Source: a virus
Lineage: Duplodnaviria > Heunggongvirae > Uroviricota > Caudoviricetes
Strand: one strand, 5' to 3'
IMG/VR virus record: IMGVR_UViG_2585427763_000002
DNA length: 42,068 nucleotides
This document shows positions 1,419 through 42,068 of the stretch, one piece after another. A program made the translations under genes and the position numbers. Under the pieces are notes generated by a model. The model made no database searches, had not been told where the DNA came from, and was given only the letters and a program-made list of their open reading frames with translations. Each line of letters begins with the position of its first letter. Positions within the stretch are counted from its first letter, which is position 1.

Positions 1419-2489
1419 TTATTTGATTTCAATTTTGTCCCACTCCCTGCCTCTGTCATCACGATACTGTGATGCCATGGTGTCCGACTTATGCCCGAGA
1501 AGATGTTGAGCAAACTTATCGCTTATCTGCTTCTCATAGAGTCTTGCAGACAAACTGCGCAACTCGTGAAAGGTAGGCGGATCCCCTTCGAAGGAAAGAC
1601 CTGATGCTTTTCGTGCGCGCATAAAATACCTTGATACTGTGCCGGATGAAAGCGGTTCACGACGAGTAGATGCAATTATGGTTTCTCCGCCAAGAATCTC
1701 TTTGCATTTATCAAGAGTTTCCTTCATTGATATCCCGAGAGCATCAACATGCAATGTTGTAGGGATGGCAATTTTTACACCTGTTTTGCTTTGCTCGACA
1801 TAAAGATATCCATCTACGATATCAGACCACTTCATTTCGCATAAATCACCAACTCGCTGCCCGGTAACAACAGCCAGTTCCATTGCAAGTCTGAGCCAAC
1901 ATGGTGATGATTCTGCTGCTTGATAAATTTTCAGGTATTCGTCAGCCGTAAGTCTTGATCTCCTTACCTCTGATTTTGCAGCGCGAGTGGCAGCGACCGG
2001 GTTTATTGTTATATGGCCTTCAGCTATTGCCTCTCGGAATGCATCGCTCAGTGTTGATCTGATTAACTTGGCTGACGCCGCCTTGCCCTCGTCTATGTAT
2101 CCATTGAGCATTGCCGCAATTTCTTTTGTGGTGATGTCTTCAAGTGGAACATCAGGTAGCCCCCTCCTTATTGCTTTAATTTTGCTCATGTAATTTATGA
2201 GTGTCTTCTGCTTGATTCCTCTGCTGGCGAGGATTTTTTCGTAGCGATCAAGCCATGAATGTAACGTAACAGAATTATCACTGTTGATTCTCGCTGTCAG
2301 AGGCTTGTGTTTGTGTCCTGAAAATAACTCAATGTTGGCCTGTATAGCTTCAGTGATTGCGATTCGCCTGTCTCGGCCTAATCCAAACTCTTTACCCGTC
2401 CTTGGGTCCCTGTAGCAGTAATATCCATTGTTTCTTATATAAAGGTTAGGGGGTAAATCCCGGCGCTCATGACTTCGCCTTCTTCCCAT
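1419..2489 (-). CDS. int: Tyrosine integrase, lambda Int type
   Basis: 356 aa, MGRRRSHERRDLPPNLYIRNNGYYCYRDPRTGKEF... recalled as near-identical to lambda Int; adjacent to P' arm. Confidence 0.95.
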   Translation of the reverse strand: MGRRRSHERRDLPPNLYIRNNGYYCYRDPRTGKEFGLGRDRRIAITEAIQANIELFSGHKHKPLTARINSDNSVTLHSWLDRYEKILASRGIKQKTLINYMSKIKAIRRGLPDVPLEDITTKEIAAMLNGYIDEGKAASAKLIRSTLSDAFREAIAEGHITINPVAATRAAKSEVRRSRLTADEYLKIYQAAESSPCWLRLAMELAVVTGQRVGDLCEMKWSDIVDGYLYVEQSKTGVKIAIPTTLHVDALGISMKETLDKCKEILGGETIIASTRREPLSSGTVSRYFMRARKASGLSFEGDPPTFHELRSLSARLYEKQISDKFAQHLLGHKSDTMASQYRDDRGREWDKIEIK

Positions 2490-9718: not shown

Positions 9719-10378
9719 TTAACTAAATGTCTCTTCAGGCCACTGGCTGGCGATAACTTTCCCTACTACGGAACAGCTATCATTGCATGGAATCATTGGA
9801 TATTGCGGGTTTAGTGGCTGTAGGAACACCTGACCGCTATCCCTGATCAGTTTCTTGAAGGTAAACTCGTCACCACCAAGTCTGGCTATGCAGAAATCAC
9901 CTGGCTCAACAGCCTGCTCAGGGTCAACGAGAATTAACATCCCGTCAGGAAAGCTTGGCTTGGATCCTGTTGGCGCGGTCATGGAATTACCTTCAACTTC
10001 AAGCCAGAACGCACAATCACTGGCTTTTTTGGTTGTGCTGACCCATCTCTCCGCATCACCTTTGGTAAAGGTTCTAAGCTCAGGCGAGAACATCCCGGCC
10101 TGAACATGAGAAAAAACAGGGTACTCATATTGTTTTTTTAACGGGGCAGATGAGTATTCGCCAACAGGTGAAAATGTACCGTCGTGGTTGAATGAGACGT
10201 TATCAATACCAAGGTATTTAAACACCACACCAATCTCGTCAAGAGATGGATGACGAGATCCGCGCAACCAGTGACCAATTCCACCCTGCGTCATACCAAG
10301 CTCTTCAGCTAACTTCTCTTGAGTTATGCCGAGTTCTTTCATTCTGGATCTAGCCAGTTCATACCATTTCATTTTCAT
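9719..10378 (-). CDS. cI: CI-type immunity repressor (HTH domain + S24 LexA-like autopeptidase domain); hybrid with lambda-like C-terminal domain
   Basis: C-terminal ~140 aa ([35 protein letters not shown]...[24 protein letters not shown]...) recalled as near-identical to lambda CI; N-terminal HTH differs (start chosen at [17 protein letters not shown]; 10453 ORF start unlikely). Confidence 0.85.
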
Positions 10379-10489
10379 ATCCTTATTATTACGCTCTGTA
10401 CTAAAACCATCCATGCACAAGATGTATTTTTTGTTTGCATTCCAAAAGTACATATCGTATTATTGTTTCATGGTTACTATGGAGGGCAT
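10379..10489. promoter_or_regulatory. OR operator region with divergent pRM/pR promoters
   Basis: 111-bp AT-rich divergent interval between cI and cro starts; operator half-sites not confidently resolved. Confidence 0.55.
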
Positions 10490-10705
10490 ATGAGCAACCT
10501 ACGAAAATATCGAGAGTCACTGAATATCTCTCAAACAACACTTGCTAAGGCGGTTGGATGCACACAGGGAGCTATCGGACATTGGGAATCTGGTCGTCGC
10601 TTCCCAGACCTTAAAACATGCCGTGCTCTTGTTGCGTGCCTAAACAAGTTAGGCGCAAAAGTCAGTCTTGATGACGTGTTCCCACCGGAACACAAAGCCG
10701 CTTAA
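10490..10705 (+). CDS. cro: Cro-like repressor (XRE-family HTH)
   Basis: 71 aa from ATG at 10490 preceded by GGAGGG; helix-turn-helix ISQTTLAKAVGCTQGAIGHWESG; divergent from cI. Confidence 0.75.
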   Translation: MSNLRKYRESLNISQTTLAKAVGCTQGAIGHWESGRRFPDLKTCRALVACLNKLGAKVSLDDVFPPEHKAA

Positions 10706-10713
10706 GACATTCC

Positions 10714-10745
10714 CGCTCTTACACATCCCAGCCCTGAAAAAGGGC
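10714..10745 (+). promoter_or_regulatory. nutR: nutR (boxA CGCTCTTA, boxB GCCCTGAAAAAGGGC)
   Basis: Exact lambda nutR boxA/boxB sequences immediately downstream of cro. Confidence 0.88.
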
Positions 10746-10821
10746 ATTACCAGAAACAAATCTCTATGGTTTTGCGTTTCTTTGCGAAGCCAACTCTATC
10801 TAATCATTAAGGAAATTATCT

Positions 10822-11103
10822 ATGGGTACTATTGCAACTAAAAGCAAGAAAGCGGCTCGCATCGAGTCAGCCTTGCTGAACAAACTGGCACTGATTGGGC
10901 AGAAGACATTCGCTCGCGCGATGGGGGTTCCTGAATACCAGGTAAGCCGATGGAAGAATGGTTTCTTCTCGCAGGTAAGCATGATGCTGGCTGTTCTGGA
11001 ATACGGAATCGAAGACGATGAAATGGCTGAATTGACTAAGCGGCTTGCCGATTACCTGACAAAAGAAAAAGCCCCGAAGAACGGCGAATTCTTCGAGGCC
11101 TGA
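10822..11103 (+). CDS. cII: CII transcriptional activator
   Basis: 93 aa; RIESALLNKLALIG...SRWK...FSMMLAVLEYG... resembles lambda CII; RBS AAGGA. Confidence 0.85.
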   Translation: MGTIATKSKKAARIESALLNKLALIGQKTFARAMGVPEYQVSRWKNGFFSQVSMMLAVLEYGIEDDEMAELTKRLADYLTKEKAPKNGEFFEA

Positions 11104-11137
11104 TGTAGAAAGACTGGATCAATCAACAGGAGTCATT

Positions 11138-11983
11138 ATGACAAATACAGCAAAAATACTCAACTTCGGCAGAGGTAACTTTGCCGAACAGGAGCTAAGA
11201 GTGGCTGATATCGATGATGGTTACACCAGATTCGCTAACGAGCTGCTGGAAGCTATCGCAAGTGCCGATTTAACCGCTCGCCAGTTGAAAGTTATGCTGG
11301 CCTACGTCCGGAAAACATATGGCTTCAATAAGAAAACAGATCGAATAGCCGATGAGCAAATTGCTCAGTTAACAGGACTGTCAAGGCAGAATGTTAACAA
11401 GGCTAAAAAAGAACTGATTTCAATGAATTGCCTGTTTATGGATGGAAATAAAATCGGTGTAAATAGGGAGGTATCTGCGTGGCAATTCAGCAAGTGTCTC
11501 CAAGTTAGCAACTTTGTCTCGAAGTTAGAGACAAAAAATGTCTCCAAATTAGAGACACTCAATGTCTCGAAGTTAGAGACACACAAAAGACATTCTTTAA
11601 AGACAAAAGAAAATATTAATAAACCCCCTATATCCCCCAAAAAAGTTTCTCAGAAGTTCGACCCGCTAGAAACAGAGTTGCCTGATTGGTTATCAGCAGA
11701 AACATGGTTGTCGTGGGTTACCTATCGCAAGGAGATAGGTAAGTCGATCAAGTCTAAGCAAAGTGTCACTCAGGCTATCAACGTTCTAAGCAGAAGCCTG
11801 GAGAAGGGATATACACCTGAAGAAATTATAAACCAGAGCATCGCCAGTGGTTGGCAGGGGATTTTTGAACCCAAGACTCCAAAGGGGAAATCTCAACCGA
11901 GGCCGCAGCAGCGAGCTATGCAGGAAAACTTTGCCGCCAAAGATTACGGGCAAACTGAAATGCCTTCATGGGCGCAGGAGTGA
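11138..11983 (+). CDS. O: Replication initiator O, lambda type
   Basis: 281 aa; N-terminus MTNTAKILNFGRGNFA... as in lambda O; iterons embedded mid-gene. Confidence 0.9.
   Translation: MTNTAKILNFGRGNFAEQELRVADIDDGYTRFANELLEAIASADLTARQLKVMLAYVRKTYGFNKKTDRIADEQIAQLTGLSRQNVNKAKKELISMNCLFMDGNKIGVNREVSAWQFSKCLQVSNFVSKLETKNVSKLETLNVSKLETHKRHSLKTKENINKPPISPKKVSQKFDPLETELPDWLSAETWLSWVTYRKEIGKSIKSKQSVTQAINVLSRSLEKGYTPEEIINQSIASGWQGIFEPKTPKGKSQPRPQQRAMQENFAAKDYGQTEMPSWAQE
11495..11581 (+). repeat. ori: Replication origin iterons (four ~19-bp direct repeats TGTCTC(C/G)AA(G/A)TTAGAGACA) followed by AT-rich stretch
   Basis: Repeats start near 11495, 11516, 11539 and 11563, then AAAAGACATTCTTTAAAGACAAAAGAAAATATTAATAAA; inside O as in ori-lambda. 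Confidence 0.8.
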
Positions 11984-11985
11984 AT

Positions 11986-12879
11986 ATGAATACGACAAAT
12001 GGTTACAATCTGGCACTGCAAAGGCAACTTGTAGACTCAAAAATCAATGACATTTCTGATCTGAAACAGAAACTTGAGTTTAGCAAAATTGGATCAGCAT
12101 CAGATGGAATGTCAGTTACCAGCACAGTGGAAGAGTGCGAGAAACACGGTAAATATACTTCCTATGAGAAATATCTGACCATCTCAGGAAAAAGAATTAC
12201 TTCAAGTAAATCTGAGTGCCCACAGTGCCTTGAGGAGAAAATTCGTAAGAAAGAGATTGAACGTGAGCAGGCAGAACAAAGAGCAAGACAATCAAAAATT
12301 GAATATTTGTTGAATTCTCTCAATATTCCAGAGAGGTTCAAAAATTGCACTCTTCAGAATTATGAGCCTGTTAACGATGATGCAAAGCGAGTTCTTAAGG
12401 TTTGCCAGGCATATGCCAGTAAGTGGCCTGAACGCCTTCAAAAAGGTGGCGGACTGGTCATGTGTGGTAAGCCTGGAACTGGAAAGAACCACCTTGCACT
12501 GGCTATCGCTAGGCACGCCATTATCGAGCATCAAAGCTCTGTGATATTTACCACTGCGTTGAAAATTGCCAGAGAGTACAAATCAACATGGTCTAAGGCC
12601 GCAACCAGAACTGAAGAAGAAGTCATTAGGCAATTTACGCATCCTGACTTGTTAATAATCGATGAGGTTGGCGTGCAGTTCGGCAGTGATGCTGAAAAGC
12701 TAATCATGTTCGAAATTATCAACACCAGATATGAATACATGAAGCCAACAATCCTGATTAGTAATCAGAGCAAAGATGAACTTTCGGCATTCATTGGTGA
12801 GCGTGTTATTGACAGGATGAATGATGGCGGAGGGTGCACTCTTGCGTTTACATGGGATAGTTACAGGAGCAGATCGTGA
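11986..12879 (+). CDS. DnaC-type helicase loader (IstB-like AAA+ ATPase), functional analogue of lambda P
   Basis: Walker A GKPGTGKNHLA, Walker B LLIIDEVG; start ATG 11986 after GGAG, 3 nt after O stop. Confidence 0.85.
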   Translation: MNTTNGYNLALQRQLVDSKINDISDLKQKLEFSKIGSASDGMSVTSTVEECEKHGKYTSYEKYLTISGKRITSSKSECPQCLEEKIRKKEIEREQAEQRARQSKIEYLLNSLNIPERFKNCTLQNYEPVNDDAKRVLKVCQAYASKWPERLQKGGGLVMCGKPGTGKNHLALAIARHAIIEHQSSVIFTTALKIAREYKSTWSKAATRTEEEVIRQFTHPDLLIIDEVGVQFGSDAEKLIMFEIINTRYEYMKPTILISNQSKDELSAFIGERVIDRMNDGGGCTLAFTWDSYRSRS

Positions 12880-13166
12880 CTGGAAAAGAAATCATCCTGG
12901 AATATCTGAAAACTCATGAACAATTCTCCCCACATGAATTAGCTCTGATCACCGGAATACCAAATAACAGAATCGCTCAAGCAGCAAGGCATATGGTGAA
13001 ACAAGGGCATTTGAGTGTTGTTGAGCGTAAGTGGAAGACGGTTATTTATGCAAAGCGCAAAGTGAAGAAGGAGCCAATTAAAAGAAATCCAGATGGTACG
13101 GGGTGGGGATGTGCAAATCCAATGACGGCGTTTATTAATAGGGCGCTTATGGAGGTAAGGCAATGA
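12876..13166 (+). CDS. Hypothetical protein
   Basis: 96-aa ORF with GTG start overlapping helicase-loader stop (GTGA). Confidence 0.45.
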   Translation: MTGKEIILEYLKTHEQFSPHELALITGIPNNRIAQAARHMVKQGHLSVVERKWKTVIYAKRKVKKEPIKRNPDGTGWGCANPMTAFINRALMEVRQ

Positions 13167-13191
13167 CCATCTACATCACTGATCTGATAGC

Positions 13192-13223
13192 AGGCCTGCT
13201 GGTAATCGCAGGCCTTTTTATTT
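13192..13223 (+). terminator. Putative rho-independent terminator
   Basis: Hairpin AGGCCTGC-TGGTAATC-GCAGGCCT followed by TTTTATTT. Confidence 0.5.
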
Positions 13224-13234
13224 GGGGGGGGGGG
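13224..13234. repeat. Homopolymeric G tract (11 G)
   Basis: GGGGGGGGGGG read directly, between the terminator hairpin and the RBS (GGAGG) of the next ORF. Confidence 0.9.
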
Positions 13235-13252
13235 AATTGGAGGCTTTAAGAA

Positions 13253-13468
13253 ATGAGTACGATAGCTGAGCTTGTCAGGGCTAATTTTCGTGAAGAGTTG
13301 GTGCGTTGGTATCGGTATCGTTCATCGTCCAGTTTGCCGATTGATGAGTTGTATGAGCATTCACCTGCTGCACGACGCTATCCGCGTGACCGTGTTCTTC
13401 GACGGTTGTTCAAACTCAACAATGAGTTTCAGCGCAACAGAATAATCCGGAGTCTGGATTTAAAGTAA
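13253..13468 (+). CDS. Hypothetical small protein
   Basis: 71-aa ORF preceded by GGAGG. Confidence 0.5.
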   Translation: MSTIAELVRANFREELVRWYRYRSSSSLPIDELYEHSPAARRYPRDRVLRRLFKLNNEFQRNRIIRSLDLK

Positions 13469-13478
13469 AGGAGTGAGC

Positions 13479-13634
13479 ATGACAAATCAGCAGCAAATAG
13501 AGTTCATCCTTGAGCAGATTCGAAAAATGCGAGAAAAGAACCAGCCAGACATGATGGAACTATGGAGACGGCAGCGGGAAGAATGGCACAGGCATATTTT
13601 GGGTGAGAGAAAATGGGATGGATGGAGCCTATAA
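13479..13634 (+). CDS. Hypothetical small protein
   Basis: 51-aa ORF (MTNQQQIEFILEQIRKMREKNQPDMMELWRRQREEWHRHILGERKWDGWSL) with RBS AAGGAG; below ORF-track cutoff. Confidence 0.4.
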   Translation: MTNQQQIEFILEQIRKMREKNQPDMMELWRRQREEWHRHILGERKWDGWSL

Positions 13635-13666
13635 AATGGCGTGGCGTTTTGTTAGTTGAGGTGACA

Positions 13667-14134
13667 ATGAAGCAAATATACATGCTTCGCAACGAAGCAA
13701 TCAGAAACAACGCCATAGACGCAATACTCTCACTTCCGATCGACGACAAGTCACCTCACGAAGTCCACATTAAAGAACCAAAGCGGAGCAATCCTCAAAA
13801 CCGCCTTATGTGGGCGTTATTGCAGGACGTATCACGTCAGGTGCTTTGGCATGGAAAGAGACTTGCGCCGGAGGACTGGAAAGATCTGTTCACTGCCCTG
13901 TGGCTTAAGACCAAAAAACTGGAGCAACGAAGTGCGCCTGGTATCGACGGTGGCGTTGTTATGCTTGGTGTGCGTACCAGCAAAATGCGAAAGGCCAGCA
14001 TGACTGAGCTTATCGAAATCATGTTTTGGTTCGGCTCAGAGCGCAACGTGCGGTGGAGTGATGACTCCCGGCGAGAGTATGAATGGTCACAACGGAAAGG
14101 TAACACGGACAATATGCGAGGGTTGAATGATTAA
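13667..14134 (+). CDS. ninB: NinB (Orf-family recombination mediator)
   Basis: Start ATG 13667 after GAGGTGA; ...NPQNRLMWALLQDVSRQVLWHGKRL...WSD... resembles lambda NinB. Confidence 0.8.
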   Translation: MKQIYMLRNEAIRNNAIDAILSLPIDDKSPHEVHIKEPKRSNPQNRLMWALLQDVSRQVLWHGKRLAPEDWKDLFTALWLKTKKLEQRSAPGIDGGVVMLGVRTSKMRKASMTELIEIMFWFGSERNVRWSDDSRREYEWSQRKGNTDNMRGLND

Positions 14135-14657
14135 GCATAAATCAGAAACACCAAAAGAAGTTAGAGACTGCTGGCAAACGCCGCTTTGGCTTTTTGATGC
14201 ACTGGATATTGAGTTTGGATTCTGGCTGGATTCGGCAGCGAGCGACAAAAATGCTCTGTGTGCTCACTGGCTAACTGAGTCCGACGACGCGCTCAATTCT
14301 GAGTGGATAAGCTACGGTGCAATCTGGAATAACCCACCGTACAGCAATATCAGACCGTGGGTGGAAAAAGCCGCTGAGCAGTGCATACAACAGCGACAGA
14401 CGGTAGTTATGCTTGTGCCAGAGGATATGTCAGTCGGATGGTTCAGCAAGGCTCTGGAGAGTGTCGACGAAGTTCGCATTATCACTGATGGACGGATTAA
14501 TTTTATCGAACCATCGACAGGGTTGGAGAAGAAGGGAAACAGCAAAGGCTCCATGCTGCTGATTTGGCGACCGTTCATCAGTCCTCGACGGATGTTTACT
14601 ACCGTATCCAAAGCGGCATTGATGGCGATCGGGCAGGGCGTCAGGAGGGCGGCATGA
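14127..14657 (+). CDS. Phage DNA N6-adenine methyltransferase (Dam-type)
   Basis: 176 aa with catalytic NPPY motif ([10 protein letters not shown]); overlaps ninB stop. Confidence 0.85.
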
Positions 14658-14830
14658 GGCGACAGCGACGAAGTTTCACCGACATCATCTGCGAAAACTG
14701 CAAATACCTTCCAACGAAACGCTCCAGAAATAAACGCAAGCCAATCCCAAAAGAATCTGACGTAAAAACCTTCAATTACACGGCTCACCTGTGGGATATC
14801 CGGTGGCTAAGACATCGTGCGAGGAAATGA
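14654..14830 (+). CDS. ninE: NinE
   Basis: 58 aa, [52 protein letters not shown]... recalled as lambda NinE; ATGA overlap with methyltransferase stop. Confidence 0.7.
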
Positions 14831-15192
14831 CAATGGATTATTCACAGTTAAGTGATTTTGAAATTAACGTGGCGGTATTCGAAGCCATTCATAACGGATC
14901 ACCGGATTACAAAGAAGGTGAGAATGGCGCGATGGTGTTTATCTCATTTGAGGGAGACATTGTAAACGGAGACGCAGTTGAAGTAGAAGTTGAGCGCGGA
15001 TCCTTTAACCCATGCGCAAACCCAGCAGACGCATGGCCGATTATTGAAAAATACAGGATTAGCATTATCAATCTCGATGAAGACGAGTGGGGTGCACGCG
15101 GTGTGGCCTACTGTAAATCTAAGCGAGCTATACATGAAAATCCCCTCCGCGCCGCCATGATTGTCTTTCTCATGATGCAGAGAATCCAATAA
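14827..15192 (+). CDS. Hypothetical nin-region protein (NinX/DUF2591-like?)
   Basis: ~121 aa from ATG 14827 (or 14833); family from memory only. Confidence 0.5.
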
Positions 15193-15368
15193 TGCTTAGC
15201 CCATCCCAATCCATTCAATACCAGAAAGAAAGCGTCGAGCGAGCTTTAACGTGCGCTAACTGCGGTCAGAAGCTGCATGTGCTGGAAGTTCACGTGTGCT
15301 CAGATTGCTGCGCAGAACTGATGAGCGATCCGAATAGCTCAATGTACGAGGAAGAAGACGATGAATGA
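15192..15368 (+). CDS. ninF: NinF (Cys-rich small protein)
   Basis: 58 aa, [58 protein letters not shown] recalled as lambda NinF; TAATG coupling; not in ORF track (<60 aa). Confidence 0.65.
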   Translation: MLSPSQSIQYQKESVERALTCANCGQKLHVLEVHVCSDCCAELMSDPNSSMYEEEDDE

Positions 15369-16083
15369 GTTAATAAATGGCAATGCTATCAAAATGACAA
15401 GCATTGAAATCGCTGAGTTGGTGGGTAAGCGTCAAGACAATGTGAAACGTACCATCGAAACGCTGGCTAAAAATGGTGTTATCCGGCTTCCTCAAATTGA
15501 GGTTTCCGAAAGAATCAATAACTTAGGGTTCAATGTTCAGTACGAGCATTACGTCTTCGAAGGCGAACAAGGTAAGCGAGACAGTATTGTCGTTGTTGCC
15601 CAGTTGTCGCCGGAATTCACCGCTCGTCTTGTTGACCGTTGGCGAGAGCTTGAGGAAACTGCGGTTAATATCCCCAAAACGCTACCAGAAGCGTTGCGCC
15701 TTGCTGCTGATCTTGCTGAGCAGAAAATGCAACTGGAAAACCAGCTCGCAATTGCCGCACCTAAAGTTGAGTTTGCCGATCGCGTTGGCGAGGCCAGCGG
15801 AATTTTGATTGGAAACTTTGCAAAGGTTGTCGGTATTGGTCCAAACAAACTGTTTGCGTGGATGCGTGATCACAAAATCCTTATTGCTTCAGGTTCCCGG
15901 CGCAATGTGCCAATGCAGGAATATATGGATCGCGGCTATTTCACAGTGAAAGAAACAGCGGTCAACACAAATCACGGAATACAGATATCGTTCACCACAA
16001 AAATCACCGGGCGTGGTCAACAGTGGCTGACCAGAAAGCTGCTCGATAACGGAATGCTGAAAGTAACAGGGGAGGCTGCTTAA
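15361..16083 (+). CDS. Roi/Rha-like DNA-binding protein with KilA-C-type antirepressor domain
   Basis: 240 aa; position between ninF and ybcO-like/rusA as for roi of HK022-like phages. Confidence 0.65.
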   Translation: MNELINGNAIKMTSIEIAELVGKRQDNVKRTIETLAKNGVIRLPQIEVSERINNLGFNVQYEHYVFEGEQGKRDSIVVVAQLSPEFTARLVDRWRELEETAVNIPKTLPEALRLAADLAEQKMQLENQLAIAAPKVEFADRVGEASGILIGNFAKVVGIGPNKLFAWMRDHKILIASGSRRNVPMQEYMDRGYFTVKETAVNTNHGIQISFTTKITGRGQQWLTRKLLDNGMLKVTGEAA

Positions 16084-16373
16084 TGGCTAACCTACGCAAA
16101 GAAGCGCGCAACAGAGAATGCCAGGTACGTATTTACGGCGTATGCAATGGCAATCCTGAAACTACAGTTCTGGCACATTACCGGATGGCTGGAATTTGCG
16201 GAACGGGAATGAAACCTGACGACCTGATCGGCGCATGGGCTTGTAGTGACTGCCACGCGGAGATCGACCGACGCACAAGGATTCTCGACAACAAAGACGC
16301 CAGACTTTACCACCTCGAAGGCGTGATAAGGACGCAGGCGATACTGCTGAAGGAGGGGAAGATTAAGCCATGA
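16083..16373 (+). CDS. YbcO-like (DUF1364) putative nuclease
   Basis: 96 aa with conserved Cys/His pattern (RECQVRIYGVCNGNPETTVLAHYR...CSDCHAEID) recalled from DLP12 YbcO. Confidence 0.7.
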   Translation: MANLRKEARNRECQVRIYGVCNGNPETTVLAHYRMAGICGTGMKPDDLIGAWACSDCHAEIDRRTRILDNKDARLYHLEGVIRTQAILLKEGKIKP

Positions 16374-16732
16374 ACGAATATCAGTTTGTGCTTCCATACC
16401 CGCCGTCGCTGAACACCTACTGGCGAAGACGGGGGAGTCAATACTACATCAGCGATAAAGGCCAGAAATACCGAAAAGACGTTCAGCAAATCATCCGCCA
16501 ACTTAAGTTAGACATTTTCACCAAATCACGACTCCGCATCAAAGTCATCGCAGACGTTCCAGACTCCCGCCGCCGCGACCTCGATAACATCCTGAAAGGT
16601 TTACTCGACTCCCTTATCCACGCCGGATTTGCGGAAGACGACGAGCAATTCGATGACATTCGCGTAATTCGTGGTGTGAAAGTACCAGGCGGACGGCTTG
16701 GAATAAAAATCACCGAACTGGAGAACGCATGA
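16370..16732 (+). CDS. rusA: RusA Holliday-junction resolvase
   Basis: 120 aa; PPSLNTYWRRRG...RRRDLDNILKGLLDSL...DD..F matches RusA family. Confidence 0.85.
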   Translation: MNEYQFVLPYPPSLNTYWRRRGSQYYISDKGQKYRKDVQQIIRQLKLDIFTKSRLRIKVIADVPDSRRRDLDNILKGLLDSLIHAGFAEDDEQFDDIRVIRGVKVPGGRLGIKITELENA

Positions 16733-16917
16733 ACGCCACAATTCAAACGATACCAGAGCTTCTTATCCAGACACGAGGCAATCAGACCGAAGTGGCAAGG
16801 ATGCTTTCCTGCGCAAGAGGAACAGTGCTCAAGTACAACCGAGACAGCAAAGGCGAGCGTCACGTAATAGTTAACGGCGTCCTGATGGTCAAACAGGGCA
16901 AGAGGGGAAGACGATGA
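16729..16917 (+). CDS. ninH: NinH-like protein
   Basis: 62 aa; ...GNQTEVARMLSCARGTVLKY... resembles lambda NinH HTH. Confidence 0.6.
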   Translation: MNATIQTIPELLIQTRGNQTEVARMLSCARGTVLKYNRDSKGERHVIVNGVLMVKQGKRGRR

Positions 16918-17402
16918 GCATAAGAGAATTAAACCTCACCAAAGAACAGCATGAGTGGCTGAATGGCTGGCTTGAACTGTGGGGCGCATGGGTTTATTCA
17001 GGTCGTCTGGAAAAGCGCATGAGCAGCGTAATAGCGAAGTTCATGGAGAGCGTAGACCCGGGAAGAGTTATGACAAGGCCAATGTGCAATGATGATGATG
17101 GAATGTTGATTTCTCAGGTCGTCGATTCCGTCATGTACATTGACAAGAAAGCCTTTGGCATCCTCCTCAGCTACTACGCCCATGGATCTTCCAAGCACGC
17201 CATTGCATCTTACTATCATCGCGTCGCAAGACCTCGCAAGATGTTATGCCGTGGCGGCGGGCGCATTCAAAAACCATCGCTCGCAACCTGTCGACGGGAA
17301 GTTGACGAAATCCTTAATGCCTCGTTGTTTATGATTTATCCGGTTCTGGATAGTGCGTTTAAAAACCGGAAACGTGTAGAGAAAATTAAACATGTAGCAT
17401 AG
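16914..17402 (+). CDS. Q: Late-gene antiterminator Q (non-lambda Q type, phage 82/21-like size class)
   Basis: 162 aa immediately upstream of a TTGACA promoter/terminator unit and the lysis cassette. Confidence 0.75.
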   Translation: MSIRELNLTKEQHEWLNGWLELWGAWVYSGRLEKRMSSVIAKFMESVDPGRVMTRPMCNDDDGMLISQVVDSVMYIDKKAFGILLSYYAHGSSKHAIASYYHRVARPRKMLCRGGGRIQKPSLATCRREVDEILNASLFMIYPVLDSAFKNRKRVEKIKHVA

Positions 17403-19492: not shown

Positions 19493-20035
19493 ATGAACTA
19501 CCCAACCGTTGTTAACGATATAGATTTCAGAGACCTAATTTTTGTAGCAAACAACGATCCGGTTACAGATTCTTTTATGGTGGCAAAAGCATTTGGAAAG
19601 CTGCCGAAGAACGTGGTTCGTGACATTGAACGAACCATAGAAGCTTGCCCTCCTGAGTTTGATACAAAGCTCAACTTTGAGCTTTGCTATAAAAACAATG
19701 AGTTACAGAATGGTAAGCCGCAAAAATTCTACCGTCTCCGCAAGGATGGGTTGATGCTTTTGGTTATGTCCTACACCAAAAAAGAAGCAATGCGTATCAA
19801 AATTGCTTACATCAACGCATTCAACTGGATGTACGCCATGCTTCAGGTTGGTCATCGTCAATTTGAAGAAGAGAGAAATGCCGTAATGCTGGAGTACATG
19901 AAAGAGAAGGATGTTGCCAGCATGTCAGGTCGCCTGCTAAATCGCTGGGGAAAAATTAAGAAGCCTCAGCTACTGGCGAGAATTGAACGCCTTGAACAGC
20001 ACGGGCAAACCGTAATCCCCGGACTCACTAATTAA
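19493..20035 (+). CDS. Rha-family phage regulatory protein
   Basis: 180 aa; N-terminal ...DLIFVANNDPVTDSFMVAKAFGKLPKNVVRDIERTIE... typical of Phage_pRha. Confidence 0.7.
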   Translation: MNYPTVVNDIDFRDLIFVANNDPVTDSFMVAKAFGKLPKNVVRDIERTIEACPPEFDTKLNFELCYKNNELQNGKPQKFYRLRKDGLMLLVMSYTKKEAMRIKIAYINAFNWMYAMLQVGHRQFEEERNAVMLEYMKEKDVASMSGRLLNRWGKIKKPQLLARIERLEQHGQTVIPGLTN

Positions 20036-34856: not shown

Positions 34857-35306
34857 GTGTTCATGCTTACTTGTTTTGATGTCGCCGACTACTTCCTGTC
34901 GCGGTGTGACGAGGATAGCGGTGACGCAATCTCTAATTTAAAATTACAAAAGCTTGTTTACTATGCTCAGGGTTTTTCATTGGCGTTGCTTGGCGAGCCT
35001 CTTTTTCAGAATAAGATGGAAGCTTGGATGCATGGCCCTGTTGTCCCTGAGCTTTATCACCGTTATAAACAATATGGTAATGGTGCTATCCCTTCTCCAG
35101 AGTCTTTTGATGCTGAAAAATTCAGCGAAGAACAGTTAGAGCTATTAGAAGAAGTCTGGGATGTTTTTGGGCAATTTTCTGCCTGGAAACTGAGGAACAT
35201 GACACACGAAGAGTCACCATGGAGATCAAACTATATTGAGGGTGTTGGTGGTTCTGAAATTAGTTCTAAGGAGATGGCAGAGTACTTTGCAACTCGGATT
35301 AACTAA
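34857..35306 (+). CDS. Panacea (DUF4065; SocA/GepA-type) domain protein, candidate antitoxin
   Basis: 149 aa; ISNLKLQKLVYYAQGFSLALLGEPLFQNKMEAWMHGPVVPELY matches the Panacea consensus as recalled. Confidence 0.6.
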   Translation: MFMLTCFDVADYFLSRCDEDSGDAISNLKLQKLVYYAQGFSLALLGEPLFQNKMEAWMHGPVVPELYHRYKQYGNGAIPSPESFDAEKFSEEQLELLEEVWDVFGQFSAWKLRNMTHEESPWRSNYIEGVGGSEISSKEMAEYFATRIN

Positions 35307-35310
35307 CGAG

Positions 35311-35730
35311 ATGGCAAGAAAATCTAAAAGGATTATCCCCCCTGCTGAATCTACAGGTAAGTTAAAGTTAGGGCCGCAGTCAGGGGGGAATTCAGATCAA
35401 AAGAAACCGAAATTTTCATTCTGTTACATCCAAAGCTCTCACTGCATAACGAAATGCCAAAAAGATGAGAAAGCTGGCTTAGCTGATAAATTATACAGAT
35501 TAAGTCAACTAACATGGGCAGATATTAAGCAGCAAGGTAGGCATAAGCTTGGATTTGAGAAGATTGCAAGGGGTGCAATTAAAGCAGGTATCCCCAGTCA
35601 TATAACGGAAGACGTAGATCATTTCTTGGCTTTTAGATTTGATGATTTGAAAGCCATGGTTGGTTATCGTCTTGGATCGACATTTTTTGTTATATGGCTT
35701 GATAGAGAGTTCAACCTATACAAGCACTAA
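35311..35730 (+). CDS. Unknown protein coupled to Panacea-like gene (candidate toxin/effector)
   Basis: 139 aa from ATG 35311, 4 nt after upstream stop; basic N-terminus; no recognised family. Confidence 0.5.
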   Translation: MARKSKRIIPPAESTGKLKLGPQSGGNSDQKKPKFSFCYIQSSHCITKCQKDEKAGLADKLYRLSQLTWADIKQQGRHKLGFEKIARGAIKAGIPSHITEDVDHFLAFRFDDLKAMVGYRLGSTFFVIWLDREFNLYKH

Positions 35731-36784: not shown

Positions 36785-37708
36785 ATGAAAAGTATAGCAA
36801 CAGCAGTATCTACTATCAATGTACCATTCCACGGCGCAGAGCTTTATGTTGTCAATCACAACGGTGAGCCGTACACCCCAATGAAACCTATCGTTGAGGG
36901 AATGGGTATGGATTGGGCTTCACAGTTTACAAAGTTAAAACAAAGATTTGCTAAAGGTATTGTGGAAATCGCAATACCTTCAGTTGGCGGTGTGCAGAAC
37001 ATGATTTGCCTTGCTTTACGTAAACTTAATGGCTGGTTGCAAACCATCAGTCCTAACAAAGTCCGCCCTGAAATCCGCGACAATGTAATCCAGTATCAAG
37101 AAGAGTGTGACGATGTGCTATACGAGTACTGGACTAAAGGCCATGTAGTTAACCCACGCAAAGCTAAAAAGGCGTTGCCGGGTAAAATCACCACTGAGCA
37201 GCAGGAAGCCATTAAACAACTCGTCATGAGTCGCGGTCAGTCTCTGCCAAAAGAAAAACAGGCTAAGGCGATGATCACCATGTGGTCGTCACTGAAATCC
37301 CATTTTGGATGTTCGTACAAAGAAATCAGTGAGGAGCAGTTTACCGAAGCACTATCGCTTGCAGCTCGAGTTCCACTTGAAGGTGAGTTCATTGGCAAAC
37401 AAGAGAAGAAAACCAACGAGCTTTCTGCAAAAGAAGCAAACAGCCTTGTATGGCTATGGGATTATGCCAACCGCTCACAGGCATTATTCCGCGAATTGTA
37501 TCCGGCGCTAAAACAAATTCAATCGAACTATTCAGGCAGATGCTACGACTACGGTCATGAGTTCTCGTATGTTATCGGAATGGCGAGAGATGTTTTAATT
37601 AATCACACACGAGATGTTGATATCAATGAGCCAGACGGACCAACGAATCTTTCTGCATGGATAAGACTTAAGAACAAAGAATTACCTCCTTCAGTACATA
37701 ACTACTGA
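36785..37708 (+). CDS. ant: Antirepressor (Ant-like)
   Basis: 307 aa downstream of arc-like gene as in P22 immI; followed by strong terminator. Confidence 0.65.
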   Translation: MKSIATAVSTINVPFHGAELYVVNHNGEPYTPMKPIVEGMGMDWASQFTKLKQRFAKGIVEIAIPSVGGVQNMICLALRKLNGWLQTISPNKVRPEIRDNVIQYQEECDDVLYEYWTKGHVVNPRKAKKALPGKITTEQQEAIKQLVMSRGQSLPKEKQAKAMITMWSSLKSHFGCSYKEISEEQFTEALSLAARVPLEGEFIGKQEKKTNELSAKEANSLVWLWDYANRSQALFRELYPALKQIQSNYSGRCYDYGHEFSYVIGMARDVLINHTRDVDINEPDGPTNLSAWIRLKNKELPPSVHNY

Positions 37709-37808: not shown

Positions 37809-39881
37809 ATGACAGACATTACAGCCAATGTTGTAGTGAGTATGCCTTCGCAACTCTTCACTATGGCGCGTTCTTTTAAAGCCGTAGCCAATGGCAAAAT
37901 TTATATCGGTAAAATTGACACTGACCCGGTAAATCCTGAAAACCAGATTCAGGTTTATGTGGAGAACGAAGATGGTTCTCACGTTCCTGTTGCACAGCCA
38001 ATCATCATTAACGCTGCTGGTTACCCGGTATATAACGGACAGATTGCCAAGTTCGTAACTGTGCAAGGCCATTCTATGGCTGTTTATGATGCATACGGTG
38101 TGCAGCAGTTCTATTTTCCTAATGTGCTGAAGTATGACCCGGATCAGTTGCGACAGCAATTATTAAACCCTGACACTGGCCTAGGAGATGCGCTTGTTAT
38201 TGTTAAACAGCCATATGCTGGTTCTGTACCTATTACTCAACATCAGCACAACACCTATCTCCTTACCCCTTACCACTTCGCAGCAAAGGGAGATGGTATT
38301 ACAGATGACACTCTTGCCCTAAACCGCTGGTCCAATTGCGGAGCTAAGGTACTCTATTGGCCAGCAGGAAAATATCTGGTGAGCCCTACAAATGGTGTTT
38401 CTCTGGATATGGATAACTACCATACAGGGGATTCCGCACTAACGGCGTGCGTAACCGTTCCCTATGGCGTGAAAATTTATACGGCTGGGACAGAAACCCA
38501 GTTATGCGTGAAGGATGCTGACTCAGCATCGACCGTAGGTCTGGCCGTTAGCTACCCGGAGTCAAGTTATTCCCAGGGAGAAACCGACATCGGAAAATTC
38601 ATGATTCGCCTGGAAAACGGAAATGGTCGGTACGGTATTCTTACTCCACTCAGGGGGGAAATGTTCACTGCGCACCGGGCGAAGTTCAAATTAGGAGCGC
38701 ATTTCGGTCCTCAACAGGGGCGTGATGACCTGACGGTGCTACAGTATTCGTGGGTAAATGGCATGCTGATTGGCGACGCTTTTAGCGGCTCAGTGCATGT
38801 CACTGGATACGGCAGCTATAACGTACAGCAGGTTGAAGGTACGCAATTCCAGTGCGTGGCCGTTAAGATGAAGTCCGTTCGAGGTAACGTAGGTGTAGAC
38901 ATCAGATTCAACACAAACAACTGGTGGAAGTTTGTCGAACTGAGTGACGGCGTTGAAGGGTTTGTTGTCAAGGACAGCGAAGGGCTTGGGGCATTTGTTG
39001 GAATCGACCTAACCAACCCAGCCAGCGAGCCAGGTGGATTTATCGATAACGTACACGTCAACGTTAAGCAAAACGGAGTACGAGCCAGAAACAGGCCATC
39101 CCTGCAAATCGGAAACATTGAAGTCTATAAAAGTGATGGATTTGCCACTGACCTTGTTTACGATGCGGTGCTTCTGGTTGACTGCCAGGAAGTGACTATC
39201 AACTCTATTCACGCAATCGTCGGCAACTCAATCACAAATGCTCAGTCAGTAGTTAACTCGACAAACAGCACATTCCGCCTGAACTCATACTTTGCGCAAA
39301 ACATCAGGTTCGTCGATTTTGTGGTTAATAGCCCTGACTGCTATGTCGGAGAGGGGACAATTAACCAGGTCGAGGCAGTTCACTCACTTTCTGGATCACA
39401 AAGCAACGACTTCCACGGTAGTGATGTTCTGGTTAGATCCTACAGAAACAACGTTCGCCCACTTTACGCAGTGATGGATTCCGCTTTCAACAGGGCAAGG
39501 GCGAGGTTTCCACAAAATACAAGCCTCCAGGTGAGAACCTTTCTCGACTACACTGTGGCAGCAGCTGGGACTTTAACAATAGAACCAAGGCTTGACCCAT
39601 CCAGGTACTACATCATCATGAGTGCTGGTACAGGTGCCTTCACCTATTCAATTGAGCTGGATAAAGTGTCTGCCGTAGTTGGTGATATTGTTTACATAAA
39701 GATAGCCGGGTCATCATCTGCTAACCCAACAGTTTTGGTTAAAAATGGTATTGGTGGGACAACGCTCAGCACATTCAATAATATCGGTCCGATTCGTTTG
39801 AATTGTGCTTACAGATTTAATGAGTCAGGTAACTGGGTGGCCTACTACATTACCCAAAGCGTTGAAACCACTTATGGCTAA
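37809..39881 (+). CDS. Tailspike protein (P22 gp9-type head-binding domain with a different receptor-binding domain)
   Basis: 690 aa; N-terminus [59 protein letters not shown]... recalled from P22 tailspike; remainder diverges. Confidence 0.85.
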
Positions 39882-40352: not shown

Positions 40353-40829
40353 TTAACTAAACATCGCAGTAATCGAGGCACTCGCCAGAGAGTGAAAATG
40401 AACGTTAAACCCGACCATCGCGCCGCTGGCACCTTCATCGACATCAATACGTTCTACATCCAGCGCGTGAACGGTAAAAATGTAGCGATGGGTTTCGCCT
40501 TTCGGCGGCGCTGCGCCATCGTACCCGGTTTTACCAAAGTCGGTACGCGTCTGCAAAACGCCGTCTGGCATAGCTACCAGACCAGAGCCAAACCCTTGCG
40601 GTAATACGCGGGTATCAGCGGGTAAATTAACAACTACCCAGTGCCACCAGCCGGAGCCGGTTGGCGCATCCGGGTCATAGCAGGTGACAACAAAACTTTT
40701 CGTTCCCACAGGAACATCATCCCACGCCAGATGCGGTGAAATATTATCGCCATCGTAACCCATGCCGTTAAAGACATGACGATGCGGCAGCTTATCGCCA
40801 TCGCGCAGATCGTTACTGATGAGTTTCAT
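40353..40829 (-). CDS. ybhB: YbhB (PEBP/Raf-kinase-inhibitor-like protein); host gene right of attB-lambda
   Basis: 158 aa recalled as E. coli YbhB; adjacent to B' arm. Confidence 0.85.
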   Translation of the reverse strand: MKLISNDLRDGDKLPHRHVFNGMGYDGDNISPHLAWDDVPVGTKSFVVTCYDPDAPTGSGWWHWVVVNLPADTRVLPQGFGSGLVAMPDGVLQTRTDFGKTGYDGAAPPKGETHRYIFTVHALDVERIDVDEGASGAMVGFNVHFHSLASASITAMFS

Positions 40830-40839
40830 TAGAATGCCT

Positions 40840-42068
40840 CCGGGAAACCTCGGCCTTCAGACCGGGGAGGAAAGGAGGCGGTTTTCCGACTAACTGTACT
40901 TTGCATAATCACATTTTCCTCTTTAGTATGTGAACACATGAAACGCGCATATAAATACCGGTTTTACCCGACAACTGAGCAGGCTGAGCTTTTAGCTCAG
41001 ACGTTTGGCTGTGTGCGCTTCGTCTACAATTCCATCCTTCGTTGGCGTACCGATGCGTACTACGAGCGAAAAGAAAAGATCGGTTATCTACAGGCCAACG
41101 CTCGCCTTACGGCGCTCAAAAAAGAGCCTGAATACATATGGCTGAATGATGTTTCCTGCGTTCCCCTCCAGCAGTCGTTGCGCCACCAACAAGCCGCCTT
41201 TGCTAACTTCTTTGCCGGACGAGCTGCATATCCGGCTTTCAAAAGCAAACGGCACAAACAGGTGGCTGAGTTCACTGCCAGCGCGTTTAAACACCGTGAC
41301 GGCGAGTTGTATATAGCAAAGAGCAAGTCGCCGCTGGATGTTCGCTGGAGTCGAGAATTACCATCTGCGCCGTCAACCGTTACCATTTCCAGAGATAGCG
41401 CTGGCAGGTACTTTGTTTCCTGCCTGTGTGAGTTTGAACCTGTATCAATGCCTGTTACCGCTAAAACGGTCGGCATTGATGTGGGCTTAAAAGATTTATT
41501 CGTCACCGATACCGGATTCAAAACCGACAATCCCCGCCACACCGCTAAATATGCGAAGCGATTAACGCTGCTACAGCGACGTTTAAGCAGGAAGCAAAAA
41601 GGCTCAAGAAACCGTATTAAAGCCCGCTTAAAGGTCGCCCGACTCCACGCGAAAATCGCCGATTGCCGGATGGACAATCTGCACAAGTTGTCCCGCAAAC
41701 TGATTAACGAAAACCAAGTTGTTTGCGTCGAATCCCTCAAGGTGAAAAACATGATCCGCAACCCGAAGCTGTCTAAAGCAATAGCTGACGCAGGCTGGAG
41801 CGAACTTGTTCGCCAGCTCCAGTACAAAGGCAAATGGGCCGGGCGGTCAGTGGTCGCCATTGACCAGTATTTACCGTCCTCAAAATGCTGTAGTTGCTGC
41901 GGTTTCACCATGCAAAAAATGCCTCTTAATGTTCGTAAATGGCACTGCCCTGAATGCGGCGCAGACCATGATCGCGACATTAACGCGGCACGTAATATTA
42001 AAGCTGCCGGGCTGGCAGTGTTAGCCCACGGAGAGCCTGTAAACCCTGAATCGCAGCACGCGGCTTAG
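40840..42068 (+). mobile_element. tnpB-only IS200/IS605-family element (left end and tnpB; right end lies beyond window)
   Basis: Imperfect palindromes (CCTCCGGGAAACCTCGGCC...CCGGGGAGG) upstream of tnpB, consistent with a subterminal hairpin; no tnpA in window. Confidence 0.45.
40938..42068 (+). CDS. tnpB: TnpB (IS200/IS605-family OrfB, RuvC-like RNA-guided endonuclease)
   Basis: 376 aa; C-terminal zinc finger CCSCCG...CPECG; typical N-terminus MKRAYKYRFYPTTEQAELLAQTFGCVRFVYNS; stop at window end. Confidence 0.85.
   Translation: MKRAYKYRFYPTTEQAELLAQTFGCVRFVYNSILRWRTDAYYERKEKIGYLQANARLTALKKEPEYIWLNDVSCVPLQQSLRHQQAAFANFFAGRAAYPAFKSKRHKQVAEFTASAFKHRDGELYIAKSKSPLDVRWSRELPSAPSTVTISRDSAGRYFVSCLCEFEPVSMPVTAKTVGIDVGLKDLFVTDTGFKTDNPRHTAKYAKRLTLLQRRLSRKQKGSRNRIKARLKVARLHAKIADCRMDNLHKLSRKLINENQVVCVESLKVKNMIRNPKLSKAIADAGWSELVRQLQYKGKWAGRSVVAIDQYLPSSKCCSCCGFTMQKMPLNVRKWHCPECGADHDRDINAARNIKAAGLAVLAHGEPVNPESQHAA

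Follow-up and report, generated by a model that had tools for sequence, protein, structure and literature searches.

A prophage-encoded adenine methyltransferase of the PF05869 family in the nin region of an Escherichia coli lambdoid prophage and its predicted GATC specificity

The window analysed here is the whole 42-kb stretch of the virus record IMGVR_UViG_2585427763_000002 (42,068 nucleotides (nt)), which holds a mosaic lambdoid/P22-like prophage at att-lambda (ybhC/ybhB) of Escherichia coli. Our subject is the gene for a phage N-6-adenine DNA methyltransferase in the nin region of this prophage, hereafter the methylase (Table 1). The initial annotation had described, at the same position, an open reading frame (ORF) of 176 amino acids (aa) with an NPPY motif, lying in the nin region without an adjacent restriction endonuclease, and these statements hold: NPPY forms residues 69–72, NinB is encoded upstream and NinE, NinX, NinF and further nin products downstream, and the genes that flank the methylase are ninB and ninE, with no restriction endonuclease among the scanned ORFs. 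A search of the window with Pfam and PADLOC found no restriction endonuclease family or defence model in any ORF scanned. The start of the methylase gene overlaps the end of ninB, and its stop codon overlaps the start of ninE in the sequence ATGA, which suggests translational coupling.

The protein belongs, over its full length, to the phage N-6-adenine-methyltransferase family (PF05869/TIGR01712). The Pfam profile PF05869, "DNA N-6-adenine-methyltransferase (Dam)", matched it with an E-value of 3.9e-66 and 222.3 bits against a cutoff of 28.1, with residues 5–170 aligned to positions 1–167 of the 169 in the profile, and was the only Pfam family to match at E ≤ 0.01. The TIGR01712 equivalog, phage_N6A_met, scored 258.6 bits against a cutoff of 97.05 over positions 2–165 of 165. 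The protein falls in PHROG 111, and its top PADLOC model was "oMTase, orphan methyltransferase".

Conservation was judged from alignments with the Dam enzymes of VT2-Sakai (M.EcoVT2Dam), Haemophilus phage HP1 (HP1 Dam, orf13) and coliphage T1 (T1 Dam, strain designation ST20), with enterobacterial homologs, and from an alignment of 60 sequences (59 homologs). The residues that are invariant in the family are all kept in the methylase: D14, P19, L34, D35, N69-P70-P71-Y72-S73, M95, L96, D100, S102, W105, F106, E115, R123, F126 and K140. The NPPY tetrapeptide (motif IV) is the same in the VT2, HP1 and T1 enzymes as in the homologs aligned with them; in the 60-sequence alignment, P70 and P71 are invariant and N69 and Y72 are conserved at 90% or more. 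When we scanned all ORFs of at least 50 aa in the six frames of the window for the pattern [DNS]PP[YFWH], this NPPY was the sole instance, and no second amino-methyltransferase motif was present in the same set. Toward the N-terminus lies a D.W.TP stretch that the gamma-class order of motifs leads us to read as motif X, and the motif I-like loop follows a strand (residues 32–37) that is β1 in the AlphaFold model. Compared with the alleles of VT2 and of L006, a locus discussed below, the ratio of nonsynonymous to synonymous substitution rates (dN/dS) over codons 14–176 was 0.07–0.12, on small counts, and the gene is under purifying selection.

Table 1 Features of the methylase locus, its comparison loci and the surrounding prophage. 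Coordinates are those of the window unless a locus is named.
Feature	Coordinates	Strand	Description
Phage N-6-adenine DNA methyltransferase gene	14127..14657	+	ATG start, 176 aa and stop; orphan, predicted GATC-specific
Motif X-like D14-C-W16-Q-T18-P19 (D.W.TP)	14166..14183	+	D14 and P19 invariant; W16 and T18 nearly so
Motif I-like L34-D35-S-A37-A38-S39	14226..14243	+	S-adenosylmethionine (SAM)-binding loop at the end of β1; L34 and D35 invariant, A37 and A38 nearly so
Motif IV N69-P70-P71-Y72	14331..14342	+	Catalytic pocket for the flipped adenine, from sequence and alignments
Hairpin G122-R123-I-x-F126...T131-G132...N138-x-K140-G141-S142	14490..14552	+	Candidate minimal DNA-recognition element
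Shine-Dalgarno-like GAGGG	14118..14122	+	4 nt ahead of the ATG, read from sequence
27-nt remnant of the HNH gene 3′ end (deletion scar)	14104..14130	+	By identity to L006
Intact HNH gene in comparison loci	L006 671-1198; L002 5477-6004		528 nt
ninB (recombination mediator)	13667..14134	+	PF05772, E = 2.9e-48; 8-nt overlap with the methylase start
ninE	14654..14830	+	PF05322, E = 4.2e-43; start overlaps the methylase stop
Intrinsic-terminator-like hairpin and T-run	13192..13225 (hairpin 13192-13215)	+	8-bp stem with 6 GC pairs, then TTTTATTT
E. coli ybhC	1-1284	minus	Start of the window
Lambda-type integrase	1419-2489		Inside the prophage
CI-like repressor	9719-10453		Followed by CII, O and a DnaC/IstB-like loader
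Tailspike with P22 head-binding domain	37809-39881		End of the virion genes
PBP-family gene (PF01161)	40353-40829	minus	Far flank of the prophage

The comparison that bears most directly on the target sequence is with the Dam of the Shiga toxin 2 (Stx2) phage VT2-Sakai, named M.EcoVT2Dam in REBASE (BAA94133), to which the methylase is identical at 164 of 172 positions (95%). The eight differences fall at residues 7, 10–13, 52, 61 and 63, and from residue 64 to the C-terminus the two proteins are the same. None of the eight lies in an invariant or nearly invariant column of the alignment; the substitutions A52S, V61I and H63Y are all at variable columns, and many family members have Y63. The first 13 residues are a variant form in the methylase and read MTIKSNTPAHDKD in M.EcoVT2Dam, which has 175 aa as against 176 here and is likewise encoded in the order ninB-dam-ninE with overlapping stops and starts. 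Judging by the title of the primary report and by the papers that cite it, the VT2 enzyme is said to have been cloned and assigned to GATC. One such paper states that "M.EcoVT2Dam is known to target 5'-GATC-3'" (PMC6602927, after Radlinska & Bujnicki 2001), and another attributes the cloning of the enzyme to the same work (Radlinska & Bujnicki 2001, in PMC7556043). Near-identical dam copies (98–100%) are listed for phi24B, Min27, HK97 and other Shiga toxin (Stx) phages in Table 3 of PMC3342100. The initial annotation had called the target motif unknown from sequence; given the 95% identity to an enzyme reported to be GATC-specific (PMC6602927, PMC7556043), that statement is not supported. We conclude that the gene most likely encodes an intact, functional small phage "Dam" of the HP1/T1/VT2 Dam family, a SAM-dependent N6-adenine methyltransferase for GATC, and we put the probability of this reading at roughly 85%.

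The departures from M.EcoVT2Dam at the N-terminus can be traced to a mobile cassette. In 34 of the 5426 complete E. coli genomes surveyed, an intact 528-nt gene for an HNH endonuclease lies exactly between ninB and the methylase gene; among 12 such cases sampled, a gene annotated as phage N-6-adenine-methyltransferase adjoins it in all 12 and ninB in 11. The encoded protein (WP_052167194) has an HNH_3 domain and a tail that reads as AP2-like, which together would be the usual build of a homing endonuclease. In strain CFSAN061762, the HNH ORF opens with the first nine codons of a VT2-type methylase (MTIKSNTPA), and its 3′ end holds a replacement methylase 5′ end, which together make the pattern expected of a free-standing homing cassette inserted after dam codon 9. 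The window matches the comparison locus L006 exactly over two segments, 14040–14094 (L006 601–655) and 14104–14180 (L006 1172–1248), of which the second spans the 3′ end of the HNH coding sequence (CDS) and the 5′ end of dam; some 508 nt of the L006 HNH gene have no counterpart in the window. The 27 nt of the HNH gene that are left supply the ribosome-binding site and start of the methylase and, in another frame, give NinB a 10-residue tail in place of its last three residues, RAA (...RKG-RAA in the comparison with VT2 and L006). Deletion of the cassette thus accounts both for this out-of-frame tail, which sets NinB here apart from VT2-Sakai NinB, and for the variant N-terminus of the methylase, which is the form that accompanies the HNH cassette; its footprint makes up five of the eight positions at which the protein departs from M.EcoVT2Dam. 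Only one complete genome, FDAARGOS_944, matched the contiguous scar junction in one piece at 100% identity; there the junction lies in an otherwise different lambdoid prophage, and the same 468-nt ninB CDS is annotated. The HNH cassette appears to be a homing endonuclease aimed at the 5′ end of phage dam genes. The scar is a small new point, an example of the turnover of selfish elements inside a phage gene that accounts for the odd N-terminus.

How a protein of this size might read GATC was considered on an AlphaFold model built with 60 homologs, which has a mean predicted local distance difference test score (pLDDT) of 88.9 and a predicted template modelling score (pTM) of 0.86 and consists of one Rossmann-type α/β domain. 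On this model the protein is a bare gamma-class-like catalytic core, with motifs predicted in the order X (D.W.TP), I (LD.AAS) and IV (NPPY) and without a separate target-recognition domain. Where the model aligns to longer N6-adenine methylases, it does so over their catalytic domains only. The best solved structural neighbour is CAPAM, the methylase that forms N6,2′-O-dimethyladenosine (m6Am) in the RNA cap, and TrmM and METTL5 are also listed. A sequence search of the PDB returned chance-level matches only, with E-values of 0.28 or worse, and did not find EcoDam, T4 Dam or DpnM at E ≤ 1; nor did it find a solved structure for any member of the PF05869 family. The GATC palindrome is probably read by conserved loops of the core, and we infer a candidate for this role in the hairpin that runs from R123 to K140. 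In this element R123, F126 and K140 are invariant, and G122, T131, G132, N138, G141 and S142 nearly so, across GATC-specific members of the family; the pLDDT falls to 78–87 in the segment G122–S142.

The position of the gene suggests when it would be expressed. Directly 3′ of a ren-like gene, upstream of ninB, stands a strong terminator-like hairpin that, on established knowledge of lambda, we take to occupy the position of lambda tR2. A consensus scan of the + strand from 10463 to 17070 found nothing promoter-like. From the place of the gene in the pR operon beyond a tR2-like terminator, its expression is expected to be N-dependent and largely silent in a stable lysogen: the methylase would be transcribed from pR as a delayed-early gene, past the terminator under N antitermination, and would most likely be made after induction or infection. 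Its most likely task there is to top up the GATC methylation of fast-replicating phage DNA when host Dam is limiting or absent, so that virion DNA would be fully methylated whatever the level of host Dam. Progeny DNA would then be protected in other hosts from enzymes of the MboI/DpnII type that cut unmethylated GATC, and phage DNA would be spared a long hemimethylated state of the kind seen by host SeqA and MutH. Both the timing and the benefit are what we infer from these features. The delayed-early timing fits data for phi24B, whose dam gene (CM2, 100% identical to VT2-Sakai dam) changed significantly on norfloxacin induction (p < 0.05), in a set where four of the five CMAT genes tested, given without individual names, showed a lytic-cycle pattern (PMC3342100).

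The window contains 103 GATC sites, an observed/expected ratio of 0.53 under a Markov expectation, and under-representation of GATC is typical of E. coli prophages (PMC4659465). Other palindromic tetramers are also depleted over the whole window by the same measure (CTAG, 0.30; GGCC, 0.52). No striking clustering of GATC at regulatory, ori or pac-like positions was seen in 2-kb bins, which held 0–10 sites each, the densest of them in the scaffold and coat genes.

Since the methylase would duplicate the activity of host Dam, no new motif is expected when the methylome of a lysogen is compared with that of a cured strain of dam+ E. coli. The initial annotation took the absence of a new N6-methyladenine motif upon expression of the gene as evidence against it; as the host is already dam+ and the gene mostly repressed in the lysogen, that result would be uninformative there.

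Several points weigh against the conclusion that this is a GATC methylase acting in the lytic cycle. The specificity of this particular allele is predicted from its 95% identity to M.EcoVT2Dam, that of the VT2 enzyme is taken from papers citing the primary report, and the 13 N-terminal residues depart from the characterised enzyme. If the VT2 work used DpnI/MboI digests, any additional relaxed targets could have escaped it. Promoters and terminators were sought by consensus matching only. That a phage gains from a GATC methylase when its host is dam+ is presumed, and what phage Dam enzymes do "is still not well understood" (PMC7556043). The phi24B dam product was first detected in lysogen cultures by an antiserum screen, and the authors propose a possible role in the maintenance of lysogeny or in supplementing host Dam (PMC3342100); low expression of the methylase in lysogens is possible.

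Among other explanations, the enzyme might be active with a different or relaxed specificity, either for any adenine, as in M.EcoGII, or for a superset of GATC, and so serve as a broad anti-restriction device. A core modelled without a target-recognition domain would be compatible with this, as would its 13 N-terminal residues unlike those of the VT2 enzyme and the existence of non-specific adenine methylases in prophages (M.EcoGI and M.EcoGII, PMC5778455; PhiOS31_p25, PMC7556043). We nevertheless consider such a specificity improbable, for the non-specific enzymes are beta-class proteins of another family, of about 350 aa and with DPPY, and the VT2 enzyme (in citing papers) and HP1 and T1 Dam (in annotations and paper titles) are all described as GATC or Dam methylases; identity to the VT2 enzyme, moreover, is complete from residue 64 on, and the substitutions lie at variable columns. 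There is a similarly small chance that the enzyme also methylates RNA, or single-stranded intermediates of replication or packaging, or has a relaxed target missed by DpnI/MboI. With CAPAM as its closest solved structural neighbour, RNA methylation might be possible, and if any of this were true the methylase could influence induction or host physiology. We judge it just as unlikely that the main role of the gene is in the lysogen, where its product would regulate host or prophage genes by an epigenetic or an RNA-directed route and so affect induction frequency or virulence. The RNA methylases CAPAM, TrmM and METTL5 among its structural neighbours point that way, but the likeness is confined to the catalytic core, at 14–16% identity. 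The methylase of the Stx phage PA8 modifies 16S rRNA and raises spontaneous induction (PMC10810198), but it is an MT-A70 enzyme with DPPW, the product of another gene, and requires a partner subunit. PamA of Staphylococcus aureus, with NPPY at residues 64–67, methylates GATC and alters virulence (PMC12435837), which indicates that even a small Dam of phage origin can have epigenetic effects of consequence in a host without Dam; in S. aureus the GATC marks are new, whereas E. coli is already GATC-methylated. As to phi24B, the finding of the Dam product in lysogen cultures and the lysogen role proposed by the authors are set against the significant change of the dam transcript on induction (PMC3342100), and the gene in our window lies in the repressed pR operon without a promoter-like site of its own.

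Two further explanations have very little in their favour. The methylase could be one half of a restriction-modification pair whose endonuclease, an HNH protein or a nearby nuclease-like gene, has been overlooked: an HNH ORF stands directly upstream of this methylase allele in the 34 complete genomes described above, and YbcO, a putative nuclease, and RusA are encoded about 1.5–2 kb downstream. The window, though, has no intact HNH gene but 27 nt of one, and where the gene is whole its HNH_3 domain and apparent AP2-like tail would give it the build of a homing endonuclease, with the methylase's first nine codons borrowed, as is typical when a selfish cassette inserts. Recombination/resolution genes such as YbcO and RusA are usual in nin regions, PADLOC restriction models matched no ORF tested, and in most of its copies (VT2, 434, Stx phages) the methylase has no HNH gene beside it. 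A pair of this sort is therefore highly unlikely, and we read the HNH gene as a homing-type cassette and not as a restriction partner, no adjacent cognate endonuclease of the sort that defines a Type II system being present. Equally unlikely is an inactive relic, although the locus has undergone a deletion, as the HNH scar attests, within a prophage that is a mosaic. The reading frame is complete, the invariant residues are kept, the structural model is confident, dN/dS is about 0.1, and the Shine-Dalgarno-like sequence and ATG are preserved. An active GATC methylase thus remains the reading that we prefer.

The gene is already known and very common, and its target can be predicted with good confidence. 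At a nucleotide identity of at least 95%, it occurs in 1566 of the 5426 complete E. coli genomes (~29%). Phage records that hold it at an amino acid identity of at least 95% number 218, among them phage 434 and many Stx phages. The exact 176-aa protein is in NCBI as "phage N-6-adenine-methyltransferase" (KEJ80547.1 and others), a name annotated across the sampled E. coli genomes and phage records. What is of wider interest belongs to the family as a whole, namely a GATC methylase that duplicates host Dam in many enterobacterial phages and the reading of GATC by a 176-aa core. A prophage "Dam homolog", M.EcoMIV, is named in a paper on the ST131 methylome; no homolog of more than 65% identity had an assigned site, and M.EcoMIV is probably of another family and was not used here.

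The prophage around the methylase combines lambdoid and P22-like parts. On the far flank lies the PBP-family gene, which we take to be ybhB from its position and the K-12 map. The early-left region encodes Ea22, SSB, a Rad52-like recombinase, CIII and N. The replication loader (11968–12879) is a DnaC/IstB-like AAA+ protein of 303 aa, with the IstB-like match starting at residue 97, instead of a homolog of lambda P. Downstream of the methylase, the order is NinE, NinX, NinF, a KilAC/Rha antirepressor-like gene, YbcO, RusA, NinH and Q, followed by lysis genes, terminase and virion genes that look to be of P22 type by size and order. The KilAC/Rha-type gene (15361–16083) is inserted in the nin region between ninF and ybcO and is one of three antirepressor-like genes in the prophage, the others being of the Rha family (19493–20035) and a P22-type Ant (36785–37708). 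Flanked by the ejection-protein genes and the P22-type ant, in a moron position, are a SocA/Panacea-domain antitoxin-like gene (34857–35306) and then an ORF at ~35311–35730 (PHROG 8366, with a weak PADLOC match to NsnC, E = 7e-6); the two may be a toxin-antitoxin or defence pair. Beside the ybhB-like gene and outside the prophage, an IS605-family OrfB/TnpB ORF (40938–42068), with OrfB_IS605 and Cas12f1-like TNB domains, runs to the last base of the window. At most 56% of the first 21 kb of the prophage is covered by any complete E. coli genome, which marks it as a fresh mosaic.

The initial annotation called the enzyme "Dam-type", which stands for its predicted specificity but not for its descent: it is "Dam" by probable activity, with a gamma-class core, and not a descendant of the alpha-class E. 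coli Dam family. What it has in common with E. coli Dam, T4 Dam and DpnM (alpha-class, PF02086) is the predicted product G-m6A-TC (m6A, N6-methyladenine), the orphan lifestyle and the Rossmann superfold. The methylase has no match to the D12-class (PF02086) profile at E ≤ 0.01, and the target-recognition domain that alpha-class enzymes carry between motif I and motif IV is absent from it. The gamma-class N6-adenine methyltransferases M.TaqI, M.BseCI, MmeI, CamA and Type I HsdM, and eukaryotic CAPAM/PCIF1, are two to eight times longer, have separate recognition domains or subunits, and are 12–17% identical to the methylase; the substrate of CAPAM is capped RNA.

Other prophage-borne orphans differ from it in family, size, motif (DPPY or DPPW), substrate and position (upstream of stx or near int). 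M.EcoGI and M.EcoGII have about 350 aa, with an N-terminal DPPY, a central target-recognition domain and a C-terminal FxGxG, are non-specific, and are reported to be silent in normal growth (PMC5778455); a beta-class enzyme like these was ruled out here, where the protein has 176 aa and the SAM motif lies N-terminal to NPPY. A lead from the non-specific enzyme p25 of Serratia phage OS31 and its phiP27 homolog was also ruled out, these being M.EcoGII-like beta-class proteins of 352 aa, and the phiP27 homolog (L24) has a gene of its own, for 352 aa, that lies upstream of stx. M.EcoPA8orf6770P, the rRNA methylase of the Stx phage PA8, is an MT-A70 protein with DPPW that has the partner subunit PNB-2, is encoded near the left prophage end and methylates 16S rRNA (PMC10810198). 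It too was ruled out, as its DPPW motif belongs to another gene, as against NPPY here, and the methylase has no MT-A70 Pfam match and is encoded in the nin region.

The known systems that the methylase resembles in family are HP1 Dam and T1 Dam, both phage-borne orphans, to which it is 34% and 32% identical, respectively. T1 Dam is reportedly a GATC methylase. All three proteins are small, lack a target-recognition domain and have in common D.W.TP, LD.AA, NPPYS, ML..D.S..WF, E, GR..F and K; T1 Dam differs in being extended by 43 aa at the N-terminus and in having 14 aa inserted ahead of GR..F. HP1 Dam is given as a GATC methylase in PMC7556043 (citing Piekarowicz & Bujnicki 1999). The phages that encode these two enzymes are of different types, HP1 being a P2-like temperate phage and T1 a virulent siphovirus.

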